Shown: positions 3,939 through 44,632, numbered from the stretch's first letter. The stretch: 44,825 nucleotides of DNA from Escherichia phage Gluttony_ev152 (NC_073087.1), one strand, 5' to 3'. The notes: generated by a model from the sequence alone, not told the origin. Made by a program: numbers and translations.

Positions 3939-5359
3939 TTGCGCGCCTTTTTAGCTTTCATGTATTCCATCAAGTCGTCCTGTATATCTTGCTTACTGTC
4001 GCGACGCTCGGCGACCAATTCGTCCAGTGTCCCGCGCGCCTGGATAATGTAGACGAATACCGGTCGAGGGTGTCCGGCCTGCATCTGGCGAACCGGCCCG
4101 ATACGTTCAACGATCTGCGAAAAGTGCTCAAAGTTCCAGGTATCGGAGAAGATTGCCAGGTGATGTCCGCCGTCCTGCAAGTTAAGGCCGTGGCCTGCCG
4201 ATGCCGGGTGTGCAAACATGATGGGGATCTCGCCTCTGTTCCACGCTTCCATATCCTTATTGCCCTGCTTACCCTTACCCAACGCGACGCCGTGCGGAAA
4301 TTTCTTCTTAAGACGTGCCAGGTCATGCTTATACTGATACGCAACGAGCAACGGCGCGCCGTTCAACTCCTCCACGATACTTTCCAGCGCGTCCAGTTTG
4401 GCGTCGTGAATCTTCACCCACTCGTCGGTCCTTTCGCCGTCTTCGTCCACCTTATACACAGCGCCGGAAGCAAGCTGAAGGCACTTAATTGTCTTAGATG
4501 CCGCGTTCGCCGCTTCCACTGTTCCGCTTTCCAGTTCGGCGAATAGCTCCGCTTCGAACTGGTCATAAATCTTGCGGGCTTTCTTCGGCAGGTCCACAAC
4601 AACAGGCGTATAGATTGGCTTGTCGCACCCGAAGTATTCAGCCGCGTCAACGGTGAGGGATACATCTGACAGACGTTGTTGTATTTCTTTCTCGGAGTTC
4701 TTTAGCGGGGCGTGCTGCATAGTGAAGCTGCCAGGCTTAACCGGCTTGCTAATGAACCAGCGATCGGTAAATGCCTTATAGCTACTGCCGAGGCGTTCGC
4801 CACCGTCGACAAACCACGTCTGACCCCATAAGTCTTTAAGCCCGTTTGGCGCTGGTGTGCCGGTAAGGTTAATCCAGCGCTTGACGTGTTTATGTGCAAT
4901 CGCTGCCAGTGCGCGGGCGCGCTTGCTCCCCTGCTTGCTACGATAGCCTTTCAGCTTAGTCGATTCATCGGCAACAACGACCGTAAAGGGCCACGCATCG
5001 CCGTAATAGTCGACCAGCCACTCAACCACATCGTAGTTAACACAAACCACGTTAGCGTCGCTCTCAAGCGCGGCAATACGGTACTTCTCCGGTCCGGTGC
5101 CGTCTACGACCAGCAGGGATGAGAACCGCCATTTCTCCTGTTCCGGGGGCCATGTACCCGACGCAACACGCAGCGGGGCCAGCACCAGTACGCGGTCCTC
5201 ATGATGGGACAGGACGCCAGTCTGGAACATTTTATTCAGCGCCCACATTGTCGCGCCGGTTTTACCGGATCCCATTGTCGCCCAGATATTACATCGCTTA
5301 TGCTTGAGGATGAACGCGGTTATCAACTTCTGATATTCGCGGCGTCGGAATCTTGCCAT
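3935..5359 (-). CDS. SNF2-family (DEAD/DEAH-like) helicase
   Basis: Walker A GSGKTG, DExx-type VVADEST, LTGTPAPN motif typical of SNF2 helicases; start set at internal ATG (M31 of track ORF) abutting upstream stop. Confidence 0.8.
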   Translation of the reverse strand: MARFRRREYQKLITAFILKHKRCNIWATMGSGKTGATMWALNKMFQTGVLSHHEDRVLVLAPLRVASGTWPPEQEKWRFSSLLVVDGTGPEKYRIAALESDANVVCVNYDVVEWLVDYYGDAWPFTVVVADESTKLKGYRSKQGSKRARALAAIAHKHVKRWINLTGTPAPNGLKDLWGQTWFVDGGERLGSSYKAFTDRWFISKPVKPGSFTMQHAPLKNSEKEIQQRLSDVSLTVDAAEYFGCDKPIYTPVVVDLPKKARKIYDQFEAELFAELESGTVEAANAASKTIKCLQLASGAVYKVDEDGERTDEWVKIHDAKLDALESIVEELNGAPLLVAYQYKHDLARLKKKFPHGVALGKGKQGNKDMEAWNRGEIPIMFAHPASAGHGLNLQDGGHHLAIFSDTWNFEHFSQIVERIGPVRQMQAGHPRPVFVYIIQARGTLDELVAERRDSKQDIQDDLMEYMKAKKARK

Positions 5360-5839: not shown

Positions 5840-6118
5840 CTATGCGACCAATTCAGCAACCAATAAATCGCAGTCGGATATGTTGTCGATAACGCGAACG
5901 TCAGCACCGCGGCGGGCCATTCGATCATGTTCACGTACCTGGTGCGGCTTAGGTTTTCCTCCGGGGCGCTTCACTTCGACGAACACTATTTTGCCGTTGA
6001 TGATAATAATCAGGTCGGGCGCACCCGCGCGCCCCTCCCATGCCAGTTTTCGGCAGAATCCGCCGACCTCTTTCACCCGTTTCATCAGGTGACTTTGAAT
6101 CTTGCCTTCTGGTGTCAT
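5840..6118 (-). CDS. VRR-NUC domain nuclease
   Basis: PDLIIIINGKIVFVEVKRPGG fits the PD-(D/E)XK VRR-NUC signature; ATG overlaps the polymerase stop (TAATG). Confidence 0.65.
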   Translation of the reverse strand: MTPEGKIQSHLMKRVKEVGGFCRKLAWEGRAGAPDLIIIINGKIVFVEVKRPGGKPKPHQVREHDRMARRGADVRVIDNISDCDLLVAELVA

Positions 6119-8634: not shown

Positions 8635-9438
8635 TTAACGGCGGCGACGTTTGCGTGGTGCTTCGTCTTCGTCGTCGTCCTCATCTTCGTCATCGCGTGG
8701 CTTACGACGTTTGCGAGGTTTTTCATCTTCCTCATCGTCGTCGTCATCGCGGCGCTTGGATTTCTTGGACTTGCGCGGCTTGTCATCTTCATCATCGTCA
8801 TCACGACGTTTTGACTTCTTAGCCTTGCGCGGTGCTTCGTCTTCGTCGTCGTTGTCCAGGTCTTCATCGGAGCAAGAAGACCCGCCACCGCCGAAGGCTT
8901 CACCGTCATCACGGAAGCGTAAACCCAGCAAGCCAGCGCCGAGTCCCTTGCCGTTGGTGTTGTTCCACGCCCAAATATCAAGGGACACGTTGCAATAACA
9001 ACCAGAGTAGATCTCCTGGCCTTCAATCTCGTCGCCGTCTATGGTCAGACCTTGTTCAGTCTGCTTCTCGCCGAGTGACGTTTGAATGATTGGTTGTTTG
9101 AACGATTTGGCGTTGATATACAACATGCCTTCGAATTCTTCGGTTACTTCATCGCGCTCGTCGCCGTCGCGAACTGCACATTCCTTAGAATCCTGGGCGT
9201 AGTGGCGGTCCATCCACTTATCGGCATTCTTCTCGGATTTCAGCTTATCGGTGAGCACTGCGCGCGCTGCCGCTTCCACTTTGTCCACCTGCGGATCTTC
9301 TTTATCCAGAAGAATCACGGCACGGTATGCCGGTTTTTGTCCATCCTGTTTAGGGGTATCACGTTCCCAAATTTTCAGGAAGCATACGCGCACATTTTTC
9401 AGGTTGACTTTAGCCATTTTCCAATTCCTCATTTTCAC
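8635..9438 (-). CDS. DUF2815-like phage single-stranded DNA-binding protein with charge-block repeat tail
   Basis: Position between polymerase and Cas4-like nuclease as in DUF2815/DUF2800 replication modules; C-terminal 90 aa of alternating poly-acidic and poly-basic blocks; sigma70-like promoter upstream (9483-9511). Confidence 0.6.
   Translation of the reverse strand: MKMRNWKMAKVNLKNVRVCFLKIWERDTPKQDGQKPAYRAVILLDKEDPQVDKVEAAARAVLTDKLKSEKNADKWMDRHYAQDSKECAVRDGDERDEVTEEFEGMLYINAKSFKQPIIQTSLGEKQTEQGLTIDGDEIEGQEIYSGCYCNVSLDIWAWNNTNGKGLGAGLLGLRFRDDGEAFGGGGSSCSDEDLDNDDEDEAPRKAKKSKRRDDDDEDDKPRKSKKSKRRDDDDDEEDEKPRKRRKPRDDEDEDDDEDEAPRKRRRR
8640..8870 (-). repeat. low-complexity GA/GAC-type repeats encoding acidic/basic tail of SSB-like protein
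   Basis: Reiterated TTCGTCTTCGTCGTC and GCGTGGCTT/GCGCGGCTT units on forward strand. Confidence 0.5.
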
Positions 9439-11361: not shown

Positions 11362-11613
11362 TTATTTTGTCTCCCAGCGGTCAATTGTTCTTGCTTCGGA
11401 TGCAACTGCGAAGCGAACATATTCCAGATTGGAATCCGCCCAAATATAAAAGTCGGGATTAGTAAAGGTGGTGCGCTTGATTTGCGCGGGTGTATTGCGG
11501 CGTTTATCTATTACGGCAACTCGCGACTGAAAGCTGCCGATGCGTTCGAATAGCCAATAATAAGGGCGTTGGTCGCGTGAATCCACCGCCTCGATTAGCG
11601 TGAAGCGTGCCAT
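11362..11613 (-). CDS. hypothetical protein (83 aa)
   Basis: Track ORF directly following terminator-flanked repeat protein gene. Confidence 0.5.
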   Translation of the reverse strand: MARFTLIEAVDSRDQRPYYWLFERIGSFQSRVAVIDKRRNTPAQIKRTTFTNPDFYIWADSNLEYVRFAVASEARTIDRWETK

Positions 11614-11625
11614 TGTCTCGTCCTC

Positions 11626-11654
11626 TAAAAAGAGGCCCGCTAATCTGCGGGCCG
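11626..11654 (-). terminator. intrinsic terminator (minus strand)
   Basis: Forward AAAAAGAGGCCCGCTAATCTGCGGGCC; hairpin plus T-run on minus strand after gene ending 11662. Confidence 0.55.
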
Positions 11655-11661
11655 GAATATA

Positions 11662-12180
11662 TTAATCTTCCAGTTCGAAATAGGTTTCGACGATTTCTTT
11701 TAGCTCTTTGTGGAAGTCTTCGACGTCGTCATCTTCCAGCTTGGCGATTGATTTGATCTCGAACGATTCCAGCAGGTCGTCGAATTCGTCGTTCGCATCG
11801 TCGTCGTCACCACCGGCGATAATCGCGGCATACTGTTTGATCTCGTCGCGCATCTCTGCCAGCGGATCGGCATCTTTCTTACCTTTGCCTTTCGCCGGTG
11901 CTTTTTTAGACTTAGCCGGTTTTTCGTCTTCGGCGTCTTCGTCGTCGTCATCTTCTACGACTTCTTTTTTGGCCTTACCCTTCGCCGGTGCTTTTTTAGC
12001 TTTAGCCGGTTTTTCGTCTTCGGCGTCATCGTCGTCATCTTCGACAACTTCTTTTTTGGCCTTAGACGGCTTCTTGTCTTCCTGTTTACCAACGGCAGCG
12101 CCAACGGTTTCATAATGTTTAGCGATGGTTTCCAGTGCTACTACGCCGCGAGTGATCAGGTTTACGATTTGCTCAAACAT
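11662..12180 (-). CDS. acidic/basic charge-block repeat protein
   Basis: ATG at 12180 with GGAGATATACC upstream; two tandem 31-aa repeats KKEVVEDDDDDAEDEKPAKAKKAPAKGKAKK; first gene after the leftward promoter. Confidence 0.6.
   Translation of the reverse strand: MFEQIVNLITRGVVALETIAKHYETVGAAVGKQEDKKPSKAKKEVVEDDDDDAEDEKPAKAKKAPAKGKAKKEVVEDDDDEDAEDEKPAKSKKAPAKGKGKKDADPLAEMRDEIKQYAAIIAGGDDDDANDEFDDLLESFEIKSIAKLEDDDVEDFHKELKEIVETYFELED
11880..12070 (-). repeat. tandem repeat of about 93 nt in charge-block protein gene
   Basis: Two near-identical units (CCTTCGCCGGTGCTTTTTTAG...TTCTTTTTTGGCC), each encoding one 31-aa repeat. Confidence 0.6.
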
Positions 12181-12376: not shown

Positions 12377-12406
12377 ATGATAGATTGGTTGCAGGATGGG
12401 TGTCAA
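12377..12406 (-). promoter_or_regulatory. leftward promoter candidate, TTGACA-N18-TATCAT
   Basis: Consensus -35 and near-consensus -10 on minus strand, TGCAACCAAT in spacer; about 200 nt upstream of first leftward gene. Confidence 0.55.
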
Positions 12407-12583: not shown

Positions 12584-12913
12584 ATGAATGTAAACGACGC
12601 AATCGAAATGTTAACGAAGACTGTTTGCAGTGAGACAAGCCGGTCATGGGCATACACCGATGCCGTGGGGGCTGTGTTATTTGAAATCGAACGACTGCGG
12701 CTTACCGAAAAAGAATTGCGCGCCAGGCTGGAACTACTCAACGGTACAGCAGCAAGCAAGCTGCAAAAACACAATGAAGAAATGGAAGAATACAAAAAGC
12801 AGGTTATCCGTTTGCGCGCCGAGGGCAAATCTTGGGCGATGATTGCCGAGTTGACCGGAATTAATCAGAGCACAGTGCGCTCCTGGGTACGCAATAATAA
12901 AACTTCTAAGTAA
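12584..12913 (+). CDS. helix-turn-helix DNA-binding protein (putative regulator)
   Basis: C-terminal GKSWAMIAELTGINQSTVRSWV resembles resolvase/sigma-region-4-type HTH; first rightward gene after divergent promoter. Confidence 0.65.
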   Translation: MNVNDAIEMLTKTVCSETSRSWAYTDAVGAVLFEIERLRLTEKELRARLELLNGTAASKLQKHNEEMEEYKKQVIRLRAEGKSWAMIAELTGINQSTVRSWVRNNKTSK

Positions 12914-12923
12914 GGCCACGGCA

Positions 12924-15188
12924 ATGAGCTTGATTAAATTCGCTGTAACAAAACCCGCTAAAAAAGGCGAAAAAGCCAGGGCGGAAAACTTCCAGATGAC
13001 GACCGATGAGTTTTTCGAATTTATCAAAGATGCGAAAGAAATATCCTCGGTGCATATCAACAAGACGGAAGATAAAGCCGAGTATGCGCGCCGCAAGCGT
13101 AAGGCCGATGGCATCGTGGCGTATACCAGTGACGGATTGCGCCGCAAGACCAGTGCCGTGGACCGCTCGATCCTGTTCTTCGATATTGACCGCACCGACA
13201 CCCGCACCCTGCGCCGCTGCCGTAAGGCGTTCATCGACGCGGGTCTGGAACACGTATTTCACACCACCACCGGCGACCGCCACCCGCTGAAGGGCGGCAC
13301 GCGTTGCGCCCGTTTCCTGGTGCTCACTGACAAGCCTGTACCGGCTGAAGACCTGGGCCGCGTCCAGTATGCACTATTACACCAACTGGGCCTGTCAGAT
13401 GTGGACTTCGACGATTGCACGAAAGACACTAACCGCCTTATGTACCTACCACACCAGCAGTCTGTTATTAAGTGCCACTATGGCAAGCGCGCCCGCGTCC
13501 GTCGTCTGCTCCGCCTGGCTGATAAGCTGGGAGTGGAAAAAGAGGAAGTACGCCGCGAGCTTACCCAGGGCGACGACGCAGTGGCAGACGGCATTCTGGA
13601 CTGGTGCTTCCAGGCCGGATTCGAGGAGTTATCTTCTGGTCGCGGTTATGAAGTGCCGTGCCCGAACGAACATCTGCACAGCGGCGAAGGGTCGACGGCT
13701 ATCATGGTCAAGGATGGCGAGATCCGTTTCAAGTGTATGCACACCGGCAACGAGTGTTGCTCGGAGCTAAATAGACACCAGCACCTTGCGCTACGTCTCA
13801 TCGGGATACCGGACCACCTGAACGTCGAACCGCACAACATGTCACGTAAGCAAATCGCCGCCATCCTCCCAGGGCTGGACGACGAGGAAGTCGAATCCTT
13901 ATATGAACATATTGTTGATGCGGTTGGCGACGGCGAAGAATACGGCGTGTGCACCGATGCGGATCTGGATAACGAGCCGGTTGCGCTGTTCAGTAAGCAC
14001 GACCCGATTATCGAGGGGTTGGTTAACTTTAAATCAACCTGGTATATGGCGGGTGAGTCGAACATCGGTAAATCGTTCTACGTGCTGGGGCAAATGGGTG
14101 CGGTTGCCGCGGGGATTCCGTTCGGTGGCGCGAAGGTCGTCCAGTCTCATTGCTTCTATTTCGACGCGGAAGGTGGCGAAGCCTCTAACCAGCGCAAAGA
14201 AGCATTGCAGATTAAATATGAGCACGACCTGGACAAGCTGCACATTATCGATCTGCAATCACGCGGCTGGGATATCACCAGCAAATCCGGCTTGCGTGAA
14301 GTTATCAGCTTCATCAACCGCACCGCTAACGGCGAGCCGGTTGGCCTGGTGGCGTTCGACTCACTCAACCAGACTGTTGCGCTGCGGTCCGCCGATGCAA
14401 AACCGTTCGACGAGAATAACGCCAGCGATATGGGTGAAGTGGTCAAAGCGCTGAAGGCCATTGCGGAAAATACAGGCGGCAGTGCGGGCGTCATCCACCA
14501 CCCGGCGAAGGGTGCAAACGGCAGCAGATCTCCCCGTGGGTCCGGCGCGCTGCATGGCGCTGTCGATTCTGCGTTCTTCCTGGAGCAACCGGACGACAAT
14601 CAGCCGGGCCAATTGAACCTGTATCACGAAAAGGCACGTAACGGCATCAAGCAAGCGCCGCGCGGCTTCGTCCTGCTCAAGTGCAAGGTTAAGGTGGATC
14701 TCCGCAAGTCCGAAGCGTTCGAATCACACCAGTCCACCAGCACCGGGCCTGACTTCGGCGACGTGGTTGCCGGTTGGGACGTCAAGCCAATTGCATCCAC
14801 GCCACGCGACGAGACTCTTTATCTCGTACCGGTCGCCCTGGCACCGTTCGCCATCGAACAGGCGAAGGCCGCGGGCAAGGCCGCAGTTAAGGATGAGAAC
14901 GCCGCAGGACCGCGCAATGAAAAAGAGAAAGTGCTTTATGCGGCACTGGAAAAACTGATGGAAGATAACCCGGACCATACCGGATTCAGTAAATCGGCAA
15001 TTGTCCGCCAGGCGGGATTGGCAAAAGGTGGCACATCGACGAAGGCAATAGACGATATGGTCGAGCGCGGCGTGCTTGGGTTTTACACAGACCCACACAC
15101 CGGGGCCATCTATGGGTCGTCTAATATCGTCATCAAAACGAATATACCCATCACGCTTTCGGCTACCGATGACGACCTGAAAGATTAA
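12924..15188 (+). CDS. primase/helicase (RecA-like P-loop ATPase domain)
   Basis: 754 aa; Walker A GESNIGKS; IHHPAKG motif typical of RepA/AAA_25-type helicase domains; N-terminal region may be the primase part. Confidence 0.8.
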   Translation: MSLIKFAVTKPAKKGEKARAENFQMTTDEFFEFIKDAKEISSVHINKTEDKAEYARRKRKADGIVAYTSDGLRRKTSAVDRSILFFDIDRTDTRTLRRCRKAFIDAGLEHVFHTTTGDRHPLKGGTRCARFLVLTDKPVPAEDLGRVQYALLHQLGLSDVDFDDCTKDTNRLMYLPHQQSVIKCHYGKRARVRRLLRLADKLGVEKEEVRRELTQGDDAVADGILDWCFQAGFEELSSGRGYEVPCPNEHLHSGEGSTAIMVKDGEIRFKCMHTGNECCSELNRHQHLALRLIGIPDHLNVEPHNMSRKQIAAILPGLDDEEVESLYEHIVDAVGDGEEYGVCTDADLDNEPVALFSKHDPIIEGLVNFKSTWYMAGESNIGKSFYVLGQMGAVAAGIPFGGAKVVQSHCFYFDAEGGEASNQRKEALQIKYEHDLDKLHIIDLQSRGWDITSKSGLREVISFINRTANGEPVGLVAFDSLNQTVALRSADAKPFDENNASDMGEVVKALKAIAENTGGSAGVIHHPAKGANGSRSPRGSGALHGAVDSAFFLEQPDDNQPGQLNLYHEKARNGIKQAPRGFVLLKCKVKVDLRKSEAFESHQSTSTGPDFGDVVAGWDVKPIASTPRDETLYLVPVALAPFAIEQAKAAGKAAVKDENAAGPRNEKEKVLYAALEKLMEDNPDHTGFSKSAIVRQAGLAKGGTSTKAIDDMVERGVLGFYTDPHTGAIYGSSNIVIKTNIPITLSATDDDLKD

Positions 15189-15265
15189 ATCCTGCGCGCA
15201 TTGGTTGCCGATATGGGAATTCCCATATCGCTAAAAGGTTAAATTTTGCGCGCATTGGTTGCCAT
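15189..15265. promoter_or_regulatory. direct repeat - 20-bp perfect palindrome - direct repeat, candidate protein-binding or origin element
   Basis: TGCGCGCATTGGTTGCC twice flanking GATATGGGAATTCCCATATC, immediately after primase/helicase stop. Confidence 0.4.
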
Positions 15266-15348
15266 TTTGAGTGTTTTTATCAGGTCGTATTGGTTGCCGT
15301 GTAGTGTGAATATAGTGAATAGTTATGCAGTTTTGTTGCATAAAGTAA

Positions 15349-15510
15349 GCGGGACAAAAAGCGGGACAAACAAGGGGCGGGACAAAGCGGGACAGCACCC
15401 CCGTCCCGCCCCTGATGGCGCGGCCTGGAGAGGAGCGGGACAGGCGGGACAACCCCCAGTCTTTCAGACTAGACGGGGGTCAATGGCCCCCCTCGTCTGA
15501 GACTGAATAA
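15349..15510 (+). repeat. noncoding cassette A: GCGGGACA direct-repeat array plus conserved 53-nt element
   Basis: Six direct and one inverted copy of GCGGGACA(A/G) within about 100 bp, followed by AGTCTTTCAGACTAGACGGGGGTCAATGGCCCCCCTCGTCTGAGACTGAATAA (15458-15510). Confidence 0.7.
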
Positions 15511-15665
15511 AATCCGGGGATTGCAAAATACACGGCAGCATGATGCGAATTGCGGTCGACGATGAACTAGGCAACCAATGCGAGTTGCATTATGCTGAGT
15601 GAAAAATGCGGTTTGCAGTCGCAGCAGATAGCGATCAACTTTTTCATGCGCGTGATTAATATTGG

Positions 15666-15694
15666 TTGCGCCCAGCCTGGCACCTTGCTATATT
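15666..15694 (+). promoter_or_regulatory. promoter candidate, TTGCGC-N17-TATATT
   Basis: Hexamers with 17-nt spacer; ATTGGTTGC motif overlapping -35 and again immediately after -10; leader TATATTGGTTGCACACCAACATGAGGAC nearly identical to the leader at 26033-26061 on the minus strand. Confidence 0.55.
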
Positions 15695-15722
15695 GGTTGC
15701 ACACCAACATGAGGACTGAACA

Positions 15723-25142: not shown

Positions 25143-25254
25143 CCCGTCTGCGGACCCCGACGAAGATTTGATGATTGACGTGAAAAATATGGAATGCGGG
25201 GCGAAGCTGAGGGCGCAGGTGTTGGAGTTGCAGCAAATAATTAAGGGGCCGTAA
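25015..25254 (+). CDS. o-spanin (Rz1-like outer-membrane lipoprotein)
   Basis: Signal peptide with lipobox LTLSAC, Pro-rich mature part; embedded in +1 frame of i-spanin gene; AGAGG RBS. Confidence 0.6.
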   Translation: MLNMLRALTALIVVLTLSACGSSSVPLMPLTESALRPPCKFDNPSADPDEDLMIDVKNMECGAKLRAQVLELQQIIKGP

Positions 25255-25266
25255 TGGCCCCTTTTC
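25243..25266 (+). terminator. intrinsic terminator
   Basis: GGGGCCGTAATGGCCCC plus TTTT overlapping o-spanin stop. Confidence 0.6.
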
Positions 25267-25268
25267 CG

Positions 25269-26033
25269 TTAGCGAGGAATGCCGCAAATCTCGTTGAGTG
25301 TTTTCACATCCAGCGCCACCGCCGTGGATTTTGGCTTGTCCGGGTAAGGGATGAATTGCTCAACTTCAGGCCATGCCTTGATCAGCTTCTTATCGGTATT
25401 GTGCATATCCAGCACGCCGGTAACAGTTAGTTTGAACGCGTCATACTTAGCTCGCAACTCGCGTCGGGCCTTGTCGTTACGGTCCAGGCGCTTGCAGAAA
25501 TCATGATCCGCCGGAAAATCAGCACGGCAGCGGGGCTTATAGATCGGCAGCGCTTTCCCATCCTCGTCCAATTCGCACACAGAAGCCAGCATAACTTCTT
25601 CGTACCCAGGCACAATATCGCCGAGATCGGGAGACAGCTTATTCATGTATTTATATTCCCAGTATCCGCGATGTACGCGGTATCGGAGACCGTCACCGCT
25701 CAAGGACAAGGTGCGAACATTTCCTCCTGCGTTGATTTCGAAAGTGGCGTCGTAAACTCGGTCGATACCTTTTGGGCGGTCGTGGTTATAGTAATACGTC
25801 GCCTTGTTGGTGTAGACGCTTACGCCGTACATCTGCGACTTGTCGTCGTGGATTAACTGTATATGCTCGCGTAGCGCGGCGAACGTGCGAATGCCTTTTG
25901 GCATACAGTCCATCGTAATTGCGTACGCCAGGTCGCGAGAGTCCATCATGATGGATTTGGCTTCGGTCGCGATTTCGTGGTCGCGCAGGATGTTAGCCAG
26001 AATCTGGTTTTTAATGTCTTTCGTCAGTCTCAT
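25269..26033 (-). CDS. hypothetical protein, reverse-oriented moron candidate
   Basis: 254-aa product from internal ATG with GAGGA RBS; own minus-strand promoter TTGCAA-N18-TATATT (26056-26085); lies between rightward spanin terminator and rightward scaffold gene. Confidence 0.55.
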   Translation of the reverse strand: MRLTKDIKNQILANILRDHEIATEAKSIMMDSRDLAYAITMDCMPKGIRTFAALREHIQLIHDDKSQMYGVSVYTNKATYYYNHDRPKGIDRVYDATFEINAGGNVRTLSLSGDGLRYRVHRGYWEYKYMNKLSPDLGDIVPGYEEVMLASVCELDEDGKALPIYKPRCRADFPADHDFCKRLDRNDKARRELRAKYDAFKLTVTGVLDMHNTDKKLIKAWPEVEQFIPYPDKPKSTAVALDVKTLNEICGIPR

Positions 26034-26055
26034 TTGTGTGTCCTCATGGTTGGTG

Positions 26056-26085
26056 TGCAACCAATATAGTGCAACCAATATGCGG
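26056..26085 (-). promoter_or_regulatory. promoter candidate for reverse-oriented ORF, TTGCAA-N18-TATATT
   Basis: Minus-strand hexamers with TTGGTTGCAC abutting -10 and repeated after it; drives ORF 25269..26033. Confidence 0.55.
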
Positions 26086-26182
26086 ATTGCAAGCGAATTT
26101 TGCGATTATTTTTATCACTGATAATATTAGAAGCGTGAAGTCGAGCGGGAGGCCTGCTCTGCCACAATCCCAGGGGGATAGC

Positions 26183-30905: not shown

Positions 30906-30933
30906 TTTGGTCGCTTAAATAGCGAGTGATAAT

Positions 30934-30959
30934 ATGGGGCCAGCACGGCCCCTTTTTTA
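30934..30959 (+). terminator. intrinsic terminator
   Basis: GGGGCCAGCACGGCCCC plus TTTTTT after major tail gene. Confidence 0.65.
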
Positions 30960-31651: not shown

Positions 31652-31655
31652 TGAA

Positions 31656-31973
31656 GCGGGACAAAACGGGACGTCCCGTTTTGTCCCACCCCTGTGAAAC
31701 TGCATACCTACTCACTTCCATTGCATAATCTAAAAGCGGGACAAGCGGGACGTCCCGTTTTGTCCCACCCCACAAAAGTGCATACGTATTCGGTTTTCGT
31801 GCATAAAACAAACGGGACAAAAAGCGGGACAAACACTAGGCGGGACAAAGCGGGACAGCACCCCGTCCCCGCCAGTGCTGCCGCGGTTTTCAGCCGATCG
31901 GGACAGCGGGACAGCACCCCAGTCTTTCAGACTAGACGGGGGTCAACGGCCCCCCTCGTCTGAGACTGAATAA
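31656..31973 (+). repeat. noncoding cassette B: GGGACA repeat array with two 30-bp palindromes plus conserved 53-nt element
   Basis: Perfect palindrome GGGACAAAACGGGACGTCCCGTTTTGTCCC (31658-31687), near-copy at 31738-31766, about 10 direct GCGGGACA copies, then the same 53-nt element as cassette A with one substitution (31921-31973). Confidence 0.7.
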
Positions 31974-32036
31974 GGTTTGTTTTGAAATCGCTGATACAAT
32001 ATCCATCGGCAACTGCATAAAAAAGGGGACTGCATA

Positions 32037-42190: not shown

Positions 42191-44602
42191 ATGGCAGCGG
42201 GTACGCTATCCGTAACGAACAATAGCAAGGCGGTAGTAGGGGTCGGCACCACGTTTACCGCGTTTAAAGCTGGCGACTTCTTAACGTTGGTGGTAGGACA
42301 AGTCCCATACACCGTGGCAATCGCGTCCATTGAAAGCGCAACCGCGCTTACGCTGGTGCTGCCGTTCGACGGCCCAACGGCAACCGGCCTTGCGTGGGAC
42401 GGCGTTAAGCGCGATACCATGTCACTGGCAACGATGGGCGTTACCGTACAGGCACAGAAAGCGTTGCGATTGATGATCGCAGATGAAAACAACTGGCGCG
42501 CTATCTTCGGCGAAGAAGAAGAAATCTCGGTCACGCTACCGAACGGTCAAGTGGTGCAGGGTATGTCGTGGGGCTACCTGTCAAAACTGCTTAAAGACGT
42601 AGATCCTGTTGAATTGCAGGCTATCGCGGACCAGACCATCACGGCTAAAAACCAGGCGCAAGGATTCCGTAACGAGGCGGAAGGCTTCAAGAACACCGCG
42701 AATACCGCGAAAGATGCCGCAGTAGCTGCGAAGACAGCGGCGGAGACAGCTAAGTCGCAGGCCGTAACCGCTAAAGCGAAGACAGCGGCGGAGACAGCTA
42801 AGTCGCAGGCCGTAACCGCTAAAGACCAGGCCAAAGGATTTCGCGACGAGGCTGAAGGCTTCGCCAACAGCGCGGACGCGTCAAAGAAAGTGCCGTATGC
42901 TGGCGTAACATTACCGGCACCGACTGGAGTAAGGGATATGCTCAAGCGGTTGCGCGATTCGGTTAAGGGCGGCTTCTGGCGCGTCGATGATATTGCGCAG
43001 TTTCCATCTGGCGAGATGACCCCTTTCAGATACGGACCTGGCGTATGTGGCGGCGCGGGGGATACATTCTTTGCAATCAACGTTGACTGGCAAACCTCGC
43101 GCGTTAAAGTTTTCTCGGGAAACAACAACGCGATCAACGGTGCGTCGGGAAGTGTTAGCGCTATCGAACTGGCTAAGCTGGGGGCTAACGGGGACGTGGC
43201 GATCGGGGACGGCGGGACCGGTGCATCGAACGACCAGGGCGCGAGAAAAAACCTTCAGGCAATGCACGAGCGACAGGCATCGTTGGATACTGAAGATCTT
43301 AACGTCCTTCAGGGTGATAAGGCTGGGTTTTATTATCAGTCCCTGTCGGCTAACGCCACCCCCGAACGTAACTATCCTATTAACCAGGCGGGTTGTTTAC
43401 TGGTGCAAAGATCCGGTGCTAACGATCCGAAAAGCTGCATACAAACGTACACCTCATACCTTAACGGTCGGCGCTGGATTCGATGGCTGAGCAACGCGAC
43501 TACTGGCACTTGGTCCCAATGGTACGAATTATATAACGCAGGGTCGTCGCCGACTTTTTCTGGAGTAATTACTGGATCTGCGGTGCGCGCTTCCGTTGAC
43601 GGAAAGATCATAACTATTAAACCTGGCGTCAATGATGTAGTTATTCACAACTCGGCATCTAATAAATTTTTGCAATTAAAGGACGATGGCGGTCTTTCGT
43701 ATGACAACAAGCTGATCGCGTATAACGGCCTTGCCGCCAGTGGCACATTTGCTATGACCGTCCCTAGCATTAAAGTTACAACAGCCAATGGCGGATTTCG
43801 TATCGACGGAACAACGTCGACAAACAACCAGCCACTTCACGTAACAGGCTACAACTCCGCAGGCACGCGTCTTTGGTTTTTAGGGAAGGACACCGGGACG
43901 AACGCGCTATTCCTGAACGATGTTACATCGTCTAAGGTTGAGCTGATCACAGACGGCGTTGTGCTTGGTACAAAGAATTTTGCGGGCAAGGCATACGTCC
44001 AGGCCGCAAGTTTAGAGATCGACCGACCGAGCGGCAAGTATTTCAAAATGCAGAACGACGGCACCTCGTCGCACCCTGCAACCTTCAAATTATGGGGTAA
44101 CGGGTCTGAGAGGGCGTCGGTTATTGAGTGTGGTTTTGATAACGGCCCTGGGTGGGTGTTTTACGCGCAATATAACAGCAACGGCACGCGCCAGATGAAC
44201 GTTAACGGTACGGTAAACTGCACGACGGTAAACCAGTCGTCTGACCGCGAGTTGAAGGATAACATCAAGCCGATCGAGAACGCTCGCGCGGGCCTTGCTA
44301 AGATGGGCGGTTATACCTACACCCTGAAAAAAGACGGTATGCCGTACGCCGGGGTGATTGCACAGGAAGTAATGGACGTTGTGCCGGAAGCGGTGAGCAC
44401 GTTCGAAGACTACGAACACCTTGCGGGGCCAACGCAAGACGGCGAGGAACTGGTAGGGCGTCAGCGCTTCTTCCAGGTGGACTACGGCGCTATTGCGGCG
44501 TACGCGGTGCAAGTGTGTAAAGAACAGGAAGAGGAACTGGTGTCATTACGCAGCGAACTGGAGGAATTAAAAGCTGCCGTAGCGGCACTGACTAAAGCAT
44601 AA
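42191..44602 (+). CDS. tail fiber protein with C-terminal intramolecular chaperone (peptidase S74-like) domain
   Basis: 803 aa; C-terminus SDRELKDNIKPIENA ... GGYTYTLKKDG ... GVIAQEV ... QVDYGAIAAY ... coiled-coil matches the autoproteolytic chaperone domain of endosialidase and T5 L-shaped fiber type; internal 48-nt tandem duplication. Confidence 0.8.
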   Translation: MAAGTLSVTNNSKAVVGVGTTFTAFKAGDFLTLVVGQVPYTVAIASIESATALTLVLPFDGPTATGLAWDGVKRDTMSLATMGVTVQAQKALRLMIADENNWRAIFGEEEEISVTLPNGQVVQGMSWGYLSKLLKDVDPVELQAIADQTITAKNQAQGFRNEAEGFKNTANTAKDAAVAAKTAAETAKSQAVTAKAKTAAETAKSQAVTAKDQAKGFRDEAEGFANSADASKKVPYAGVTLPAPTGVRDMLKRLRDSVKGGFWRVDDIAQFPSGEMTPFRYGPGVCGGAGDTFFAINVDWQTSRVKVFSGNNNAINGASGSVSAIELAKLGANGDVAIGDGGTGASNDQGARKNLQAMHERQASLDTEDLNVLQGDKAGFYYQSLSANATPERNYPINQAGCLLVQRSGANDPKSCIQTYTSYLNGRRWIRWLSNATTGTWSQWYELYNAGSSPTFSGVITGSAVRASVDGKIITIKPGVNDVVIHNSASNKFLQLKDDGGLSYDNKLIAYNGLAASGTFAMTVPSIKVTTANGGFRIDGTTSTNNQPLHVTGYNSAGTRLWFLGKDTGTNALFLNDVTSSKVELITDGVVLGTKNFAGKAYVQAASLEIDRPSGKYFKMQNDGTSSHPATFKLWGNGSERASVIECGFDNGPGWVFYAQYNSNGTRQMNVNGTVNCTTVNQSSDRELKDNIKPIENARAGLAKMGGYTYTLKKDGMPYAGVIAQEVMDVVPEAVSTFEDYEHLAGPTQDGEELVGRQRFFQVDYGAIAAYAVQVCKEQEEELVSLRSELEELKAAVAALTKA
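42730..42825 (+). repeat. 48-nt tandem duplication inside tail fiber gene
   Basis: GAAGACAGCGGCGGAGACAGCTAAGTCGCAGGCCGTAACCGCTAAAG occurs twice back to back, encoding KTAAETAKSQAVTAK twice. Confidence 0.7.
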
Positions 44603-44605
44603 CGA

Positions 44606-44632
44606 GAAGGGGCCGCACGGCCCCTTTTTTTT
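44606..44632 (+). terminator. intrinsic terminator
   Basis: GGGGCCGCACGGCCCC plus T8 after tail fiber gene. Confidence 0.7.

Follow-up and report, generated by a model that had tools for sequence, protein, structure and literature searches.

The sequence of Escherichia phage Gluttony_ev152 (NC_073087.1; 44,825 nucleotides, analysed at its full length and called the window below) looks like a complete Dhillonvirus genome, i.e. that of an E. coli siphovirus of the HK578 / SSL-2009a / SO-1 type. It carries a 53-nucleotide (nt) element, AGTCTTTCAGACTAGACGGGGGTCAA(T/C)GGCCCCCCTCGTCTGAGACTGAATAA, at two places on the plus strand (copy A, 15458-15510; copy B, 31921-31973), and this element, the DNA module to which it belongs and the neighbouring gene for a replicative helicase-primase are the subject of this report. 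Copy A lies in a gap of 534 nt 3′ of the helicase-primase gene, the module starting 126 nt past the stop codon. Copy B lies in a gap of 385 nt between the tail chaperone genes G/GT and the tape-measure gene (end of the GT −1 frame, 31651; tape-measure ATG, 32037). For each copy, the plus strand is the coding strand of a long block of rightward genes. The copies are identical at 52 of 53 positions, the sole difference being at element position 27, in a loop; the two copies with their one-base difference, the three AGTCT/AGACT segments and the lack of a T-run were all as given in a preliminary description of this DNA. That description had also taken the element as a unit. The element is real, but repeat search and pairwise alignment showed that it is not free-standing: it is the best-conserved 3′ end of a direct repeat of 197 nt (15314-15510 and 31777-31973, 82% identical) and stands behind arrays of GCGGGACA boxes. 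The sequence downstream of the hairpin was not part of the duplication when copies A and B were aligned. The order within the module is AT-rich block, six GCGGGACA boxes, 5-bp palindrome, GC-rich hairpin (9-11 bp) and third AGACT, and the two modules have the same orientation, 16.4 kb apart. The features are as follows.

12924-15188, plus strand: replicative helicase-primase gene, 754 aa (PHROG phrog_3228, E = 0; Pfam AAA_25, 6e-19, residues 357-531).
15300-15348, plus strand: AT-rich block of copy A, 29% GC, carrying GAATAGTTATGCA and the palindrome TTATGCA-N7-TGCATAA.
15314-15510, plus strand: whole module, copy A, 197 nt, 82% identity to 31777-31973.
15349-15451, plus strand: iteron-like boxes of copy A, GCGGGACA at 15349, 15361, 15377, 15387, 15435 and 15444.
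15403-15408: one inverted CGGGAC within the box array of copy A.
15458-15470, plus strand: small palindrome AGTCT-TTC-AGACT of copy A, invariant in Dhillonvirus.
15471-15498, plus strand: GC-rich hairpin of copy A, AGACGGGGG-loop-CCCCCC(T)CGTCT, pairable in 22 of 22 variants.
15500-15510, plus strand: third AGACT(G) segment of copy A, able to pair with 15458-15462, and AATAA tail.
31652-31776, plus strand: extra box palindromes GGGACAAAACGGGAC/GTCCCGTTTTGTCCC, present twice and in copy B only (repeat search).
31777-31973, plus strand: whole module, copy B, within the 385-nt non-coding gap.
31813-31913, plus strand: iteron-like boxes of copy B, CGGGAC at 31813, 31825, 31841, 31851, 31899 and 31907.
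31921-31973, plus strand: 53-nt element, copy B (palindrome 31921-31933, hairpin 31934-31961, third AGACT 31963-31967).
15666-15694, plus strand: sigma70-like promoter TTGCGC-17-TATATT, downstream of copy A and outside the repeat, flanked by ATTGGTTGC boxes (see below).

The box spacings are 12, 16, 10, 48 and 9 in copy A and 12, 16, 10, 48 and 8 in copy B, and the hairpins begin 13-14 nt past the start of the last box. Exact copies of GCGGGACA occur 14 times in the window, as against 2.15 expected, and 12 of these are in the two intergenic regions. Boxes of the form CGGGAC are clustered in non-coding DNA, seven at 15350-15450 and twelve at 31657-31912. In an alignment of 19 genomes the boxes of copy A were invariant, and so were the arms of TTATGCA-N7-TGCATAA, while its spacer was variable. 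The AT-rich block, which differs in composition from the box region (71% GC), adjoins the repeats as in iteron origins.

Parts of this DNA have been annotated before. The record of Sodalis phage SO-1 (NC_013600) has a repeat_region, 'region A', in front of the tape-measure gene, with direct, inverted and palindromic repeats and similar to 'region B'; these two regions are the same DNA as the modules described here, and the record describes repeats only. A GCGGGAC/GTCCCGC hairpin is labelled as a terminator in one record, and a repeat in region B is marked in another. Several records have a 'hypothetical protein' at these places, corresponding to open reading frames (ORFs) 15246-15500 and 31694-31963, which overlap both copies in one frame. 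A coding function was ruled out, since at 46 distinct loci the frame stays open for anything between 10 and 99 codons before the element, and insertions or deletions in the G-run shift the stop, and these ORFs are probably mis-annotations.

No further copy of the 53-nt element was found in the window at up to three mismatches, and 100 dinucleotide shuffles gave no match. A covariance model of the Dhillonvirus element, built from 22 variants, likewise detected only copies A and B in the window (plus strand, E < 0.01) and no third copy. The element was present in 157 of 157 related GenBank phage records, at 324 places in total; nearly all records had it at least twice, typically two times, and IMG/VR, metagenomes and GenBank together gave 22 distinct versions. 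Its occurrence in the first two of these sources was limited to Dhillonvirus-like contigs. Searches of 72,556 plasmids, of 5,426 complete E. coli genomes and of 185,579 species, each represented by one genome, did not reveal the element; the species genomes gave 27 pattern matches, none of which had the hairpin. An actinophage-like sequence (L127), a bacterial intergenic sequence (L182) and 43 metagenome variants without hairpin were set aside as chance look-alikes.

The stems are near-invariant and the loops freely variable in about 35 genomes, in keeping with the conserved structured element of the preliminary description. The flanks AGTCTTTCAGACTAGACGGGGG and CCCCCTCGTCTGAGACTG are nearly invariant among the element versions. 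In the 22 variants the loop of the GC hairpin showed 12 different sequences of 5-8 nt, the 3′ bulge was T, G or TC, and the G-run comprised 5-6 and the C-run 5-7 residues. The hairpin had been described as G6/C6; a hairpin of a G-run with a C-run is indeed present, but the run that follows AGAC has five G in the window. Within one and the same genome the loops of copies A and B differed in 11 of 14 cases, which indicates that the stems are held by selection and not only by gene conversion. The most divergent member of the clade (IMG/VR 3300045988_050407), whose helicase-primase is 68% identical to that of the window, also has copy B; its element is 80-87% identical, as against 49-63% for flanks and adjacent genes. 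Its copy B contains GGACG...CGTCC in place of AGACG...CGTCT, i.e. a two-sided exchange of A:T for G:C; G:C at this hairpin pair (A14:T41) is the state of the divergent phage L147 and of Pantoea phage AH01. Pair counts on a MAFFT alignment were uninformative, because the stems barely vary and L147 was misaligned, and were replaced by an anchor-based count. That the segment is a neutral or selfish duplicate lacking any function would be in line with the simple direct duplication of the 197-nt module and with the SO-1 record, in which no function is assigned. This explanation is highly improbable, given the presence of the element in every related record, its far better conservation than that of flanks and neighbouring genes, the divergence of loops with stems held, and its absence from the E. 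coli, plasmid and species genomes.

Relatives in other genera were found through the helicase-primase. With its C-terminal 160 aa, a homologue search returned one fragment only and a representative search 10 proteins, and it was through these matches that a 44-kb contig (L227) and Enterobacter phage phiEap-2 were found. Further matches of the helicase-primase were Pantoea phage AH01, the Cornellvirus phages VSiA, Shemara, GRNsp27, PSDA-2 and TS6, and Serratia phage Smarc3. A single homologous module lies directly 3′ of the helicase-primase gene in phiEap-2/L227, AH01 and Cornellvirus, and none was found near the tape-measure gene. In phiEap-2, AH01 and Cornellvirus the module consists of an AT-rich GAATAGTTATGCA block upstream of 6-7 boxes, a 5-bp palindrome and a GC-rich hairpin, and a CACGGCAAC motif further on is common to these gaps. 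The Dhillonvirus covariance model also recovered AH01 (E 2e-5) and L227 (E 0.018) beyond the two copies in the window. The lineages compare as follows.

Dhillonvirus: box CGGGACA; palindrome AGTCT-TTC-AGACT; GC arms AGACGGGGG and CCCCCCTCGTCT.
phiEap-2: box CGGACAA; palindrome AGTCT-TAGC-AGACT; GC arms GGGGGTGGTC and GACCCACCC.
AH01: box CGGACAA; palindrome AGTCT-TATC-AGACT; GC arms GGATGGGGGGTG and CACCACCCCTCCGTCC.
Cornellvirus: box GGGGGAGA; palindrome CTCCT-TAG-AGGAG; GC arms AGATGGGTGGG and CCCACCATC.

The spacer of the palindrome is thus 3 nt long in Dhillonvirus and 4 nt in phiEap-2 and AH01. In the Cornellvirus palindrome, at the same position, three of the five pairs are exchanged on both sides relative to Dhillonvirus; together with the A14:T41 exchange, these are structure-preserving substitutions of the kind that the preliminary description had asked after. 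The third AGACT occurs in Dhillonvirus, phiEap-2 and AH01 and is absent from Cornellvirus, so the two local hairpins are universal and the long-range (P1) helix is not. In Smarc3 the corresponding position is taken by TTCCGCACA boxes together with a long palindrome rich in GC. LotteLoewe_Bas71, with a helicase-primase 34% identical, was rejected, as it lacks the module and has a plain terminator. The sequence of the box depends on the lineage (CGGGACA, CGGACAA, GGGGGAGA and TTCCGCACA), and the helicase-primases of these lineages are 44-46% identical. Since the relatives have a single copy behind the helicase-primase gene, copy A is ancestral and copy B a duplication of the Dhillonvirus clade.

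The preliminary description had proposed alternative pairings, the first AGTCT pairing either with the adjacent AGACT or with the distal one, and from these a regulatory RNA switch or attenuator. Both pairings can be drawn, but in ViennaRNA the small AGTCT/AGACT hairpin had, as RNA, a probability of at most 0.01 in 21 of the 22 variants (0.28 in L147). For most variants the fold was a single long hairpin, about 20 bp with minor bulges (RNA, −24 to −30 kcal/mol; DNA, −11 to −15 kcal/mol). The tandem CAGACT-AGACG of the 5′ arm allows two slip registers, and the choice between them is set by the length of the G/C-run. The register of minimum free energy (MFE), UCAGAC with GUCUGA, was rejected as the conserved structure, being broken in L147 and not found in Cornellvirus. 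The conserved structural units are the small palindrome and the GC hairpin. The minus strand folded about as well as the plus strand, and better in AH01, phiEap-2 and VSiA; a bias of G-T wobbles favouring the plus strand was refuted by folding both strands. Since both strands fold about equally, as expected of a DNA palindrome, no constraint on the plus strand (RNA) is evident. Rfam gave nothing for the element at gathering score and, at E ≤ 5, only generic hairpin matches resembling microRNA precursors, so that a tRNA or other known RNA family was rejected. An intrinsic terminator was rejected as well, since both strands lack a T-run: what follows the hairpin is GAATAAAATCC in copy A, GAATAAGGTTTG in copy B and GGGG on the minus strand. 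Neither terminator scan listed the element, unlike the canonical terminators of the window, and no downstream terminator or Shine-Dalgarno partner for it was found. Taken with the single long hairpin in two registers and the folding of the minus strand, these results do not uphold an RNA switch or attenuator. The canonical terminators form a family (GGGGCC-loop-GGCCCC with T-run, n = 3) at 25242-25265, just before a minus-strand gene, at 30933-30956, after the major tail gene, and at 44606-44629, after the last gene.

An RNA element of another type on the rightward transcripts, e.g. an RNase III-type processing site, a 3′-end stabiliser or a nut/put-like signal for antitermination in cis, is rather unlikely. 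One copy would follow the early right operon and the other the terminator behind the major tail gene, and both the location of the two copies on the coding strand and the canonical terminator at 30933-30956, upstream of copy B, would suit such an element. The folding as RNA (MFE −34 to −37 kcal/mol; z-scores −2.4 and −3.7) points in the same direction. The element is also like lambda nut and HK022 put in forming two near-identical structured copies per genome with a difference in the loop base, as between lambda nutL and nutR. The nut and put sites, however, are found on divergent transcripts, just downstream of early promoters, and are not adjoined by DNA box arrays, whereas here there is no boxA-like partner and no strand bias, and the relatives are single-copy. 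Further points against RNA are the lack of an Rfam family, the lack of a folding advantage of the plus strand and the absence of the P1 helix from Cornellvirus. The distance between element and box array is fixed in both copies and in the other genera, and in those genera the element is found only behind the helicase-primase gene. The predicted promoter of the next genes (15666-15694) lies downstream of copy A, so that their transcript would exclude the element.

The box array might also be an operator or enhancer, in which the boxes and AGTCT-N3-AGACT would be duplex sites for a regulator that switches on or insulates the gene blocks starting after each copy. A candidate is encoded at the head of the operon, a 109-aa helix-turn-helix (HTH) protein (12584-12913) that is HTH_23/sigma70-region-4-like. 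The boxes do cluster upstream of gene blocks, with the sigma70-like promoter 15666-15694 after copy A and, after copy B, a conserved extended −10-like TGATACAAT (31992-32000). We nevertheless consider a regulatory array of this type unlikely. From the element to the nearest −10-like hexamer the distance is 13 nt in copy A and 21 nt in copy B, and the variable palindrome spacer, loop and run lengths are ill-suited to a rigid duplex site; variation of loop and G/C-run length fits a hairpin better than a rigid duplex site for a dimer. The small HTH genes upstream of the helicase-primase are not alignable between Dhillonvirus and phiEap-2 and their products are unrelated, though the boxes are nearly alike. 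The promoters, moreover, are already marked by a separate motif, ATTGGTTGC.

In 17 genomes the extended −10-like TGATACAAT, which stands 37 nt upstream of the tape-measure ATG, is invariant, and with it the tail genes just past copy B may have a promoter of their own. The ATTGGTTGC(AC) boxes, with 14 exact copies, occur in or beside sigma70-like promoters, at 12384-12392, 15200-15297 and 15661-15700 and, on the minus strand, at 967-1005, 2882-2907, 5856-5864, 15571-15579, 16226, 26049-26103 and 42167. The promoter-box arrangement of 15666-15694 recurs on the minus strand at 967-1005 and 26065-26103, where the promoters read TTGCAA-18-TATA (1005-967 and 26103-26065). These boxes are also present in the divergent relatives L125, L147 and L150, and they look like an operator/promoter motif of a phage regulator. 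A ATTGGTTGC-type promoter of its own was also seen for the minus-strand gene 25269-26078, which encodes an Nmad5 (nucleotide-modification-associated) domain, stands among the head genes and is preceded by the terminator at 25242.

The helicase-primase joins a primase region, a RepA-like AAA_25 helicase and an extension at the C-terminus in one protein, and the proteins of the Dhillonvirus and phiEap-2 types are 44% identical end to end. It is the presumed partner of the boxes. A search with a 21-nt box pattern yielded two unrelated viral contigs, L132 and L133, with dense CGGGACAA/TTGTCCCG arrays. In L133 (array region 11490-11740), 14 CGGGACA boxes crowd into about 215 nt (11517-11730) immediately behind the 3′ end of the gene for a helicase-primase homologue of 752 aa; in L132, 8 boxes (array 4602-4790) are 2.1 kb from the gene for a homologue of 771 aa. 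BLASTP of these homologues against the protein of the window gave E values of 8e-12 and 4e-10, and the L132 alignment reaches the C-terminal segment. The neighbours of both arrays are replication or recombination genes, and no terminase is nearby. Distant members of the helicase-primase family thus apparently make use of one and the same 8-mer box, CGGGACAA.

A packaging signal, in which boxes and hairpin would be the recognition part for the small terminase (TerS) of a headful pac region, is quite improbable. Dhillonviruses do package by the headful mechanism from a preferred pac site (PMC9022532, PMC13348001). In the Smarc3 record (L130; 39605-40056 and position 1) the annotated 'pac site' follows the syntenic palindrome at a distance of 160 nt, and the first base of six Dhillonvirus GenBank records falls about 110 nt past copy A (about position 15621 of the window). 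The phiEap-2 record (L229, 39897-40491), described as linear on the strength of restriction mapping (PMC4913238), ends 350 nt past its hairpin. TerS is also conserved between the lineages, and co-variation of box and protein alone therefore does not single out the helicase-primase over TerS. Record starts are, however, conventions in most entries, and the CGGGACAA arrays of L132 and L133 are in replication modules beside helicase-primase homologues, away from any terminase. The module is present in duplicate, unlike a pac signal, of which there is normally one, and the stretch downstream of the hairpin, in which the cuts would fall, is not part of the duplication. The pac site may simply share the intergenic region with the module. 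A sequence recorded as 'cos' in EE09, ATCTTAAGGG, maps at 2869 and is unrelated to the element. The suggestion in the preliminary description of a recognition site for a recombinase or terminase came closer to the evidence as far as it concerned a protein site on DNA; the context, however, speaks for the helicase-primase and an origin-type module, and gives no hint of a recombinase and a weak one of a terminase.

Judged on sequence and context, there is about an even chance that the element is the hairpin part of a cis-acting DNA module of an iteron-type replication origin, duplicated in Dhillonvirus as in P4 ori/crr. What argues for such an origin is that the AT-rich block, the lineage-specific repeats, the place behind the primase-helicase gene and the constrained stems with free loops match iteron origins, in which a repeat cluster in non-coding DNA adjoins a helicase gene and an AT-rich flank and the repeats vary with the lineage of the initiator. 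A constrained stem with a free loop is the pattern expected of a protein reading a DNA stem, and a hairpin of this kind adjoining iterons is also in agreement with ssi-type signals. The helicase-primase would bind the boxes via its C-terminal domain, the adjacent AT-rich block would then melt, and the extruded hairpins might act as a structure-specific loading or priming signal. Copy B could then be a second origin, or an enhancer of the first in cis like crr of P4. That the double hairpin is such a loading or priming signal, read by a single polypeptide combining primase, helicase and origin binder, is a possible but doubtful extension. GC skew was discarded as an origin locator, as it tracks gene orientation and places no origin.

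Several observations weigh against an origin of this type. The C-terminal 160 aa of the helicase-primase gave a structural model of low confidence (AlphaFold2, pLDDT 57) with a helix-helix-helix-strand segment, and this poor model had weak Foldseek matches (E ≥ 0.03) to the winged helices of MarR, IclR, LexA and ORC; a winged-helix DNA-binding fold of the C-terminus is thus suggestive only. Comparison of the protein with PDB entries gave a weak match to 1g8y (RepA family) and no sequence match to P4 alpha or any origin-binding domain. Signals of the ssi type are on opposite strands, whereas both copies here lie on the plus strand, and only one copy is present in the relatives. As an unwinding element a GC-rich hairpin would not be classical, a second origin within a late tail operon would be unusual, and the stem covariation comprises few independent events. 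The annotation of a pac site in the same intergenic region of Smarc3 and the conservation of TerS (41% identity between Dhillonvirus and phiEap-2) belong here as well.

Alpha of P4 is a primase-helicase with a C-terminal origin-binding domain, and octamer iterons are found at ori and at the distant crr, about 4.5 kb away. As in P4, one polypeptide comprises primase, helicase and a C-terminal DNA-binding part, the last being putative here, and short boxes (8 nt) form two clusters kilobases apart, the second resembling the first in sequence. Unlike in P4, the clusters are 16.4 kb apart, no sequence similarity to alpha was found and the helicase is of the RepA/AAA_25 type; to our knowledge, P4 ori and crr have no counterpart of the conserved double hairpin. 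The oriV of RSF1010/R1162 comprises iterons, GC-rich and AT-rich segments and the ssiA and ssiB hairpins of about 40 nt, and is served by the RepA helicase, the RepB′ primase and RepC. There, too, iterons are followed by hairpins, the stems of which are read by the primase, and the helicase is of the same RepA family (AAA_25). The three functions are, however, fused in one protein here, the hairpins are without sequence similarity, and ssiA and ssiB are on opposite strands a few dozen bases apart, whereas the two elements are co-oriented and 16 kb apart. In the pri-rep-ori modules of SaPIs and PICIs the origin is 3′ of rep and the iteron sequence changes with the specificity of the initiator. 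The module described here resembles these in containing iterons and lying immediately 3′ of the helicase/initiator gene, but differs from SaPI origins, in which two iteron sets flank an AT-rich stretch and which are not known to have a conserved hairpin or a second copy.

Other repeats were observed elsewhere in the window. An exact tandem duplication of 48 nt (42728-42823) is located inside the ORF 42191-44602, a lateral tail fibre-like gene of 803 aa. GA(C/T)-rich repetitive coding DNA in minus-strand ORFs, at 8642-8868 and 11868-12047, corresponds to acidic repeat stretches in two early proteins and includes a 90-nt tandem repeat at 11868-12047.

The kind of system proposed, an iteron origin beside its initiator, is already known, and the repeats themselves were noticed in annotation of the 2009 era and never explained. 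What appears to be new is that the double hairpin is conserved, that the boxes form a series by lineage and that the tail operon contains a duplicate in the same orientation. A literature search retrieved no paper on these repeats, the 53-nt hairpin, its link to the helicase-primase or the relatives, and a search with sequence strings returned primers only.

Dhillonviruses are among the commonest E. coli siphoviruses in collections (e.g. BASEL) and among phage-therapy isolates. If the module is an origin, these phages would run two co-oriented initiation modules, one of them inside the late tail operon. They would then have either two origins or an origin with a distant crr-like enhancer, which would also couple replication to late-gene DNA. 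If the hairpin is a primase/helicase signal, it would be a compact phage counterpart of plasmid ssi sites. The module accounts for two large non-coding gaps that are now filled with spurious 'hypothetical protein' ORFs, and it flags DNA that should not be disturbed when these phages are engineered. As a cis module of about 200 bp with a named partner, it would offer a directly testable origin for Dhillonvirus and its Guernseyvirinae-like relatives.

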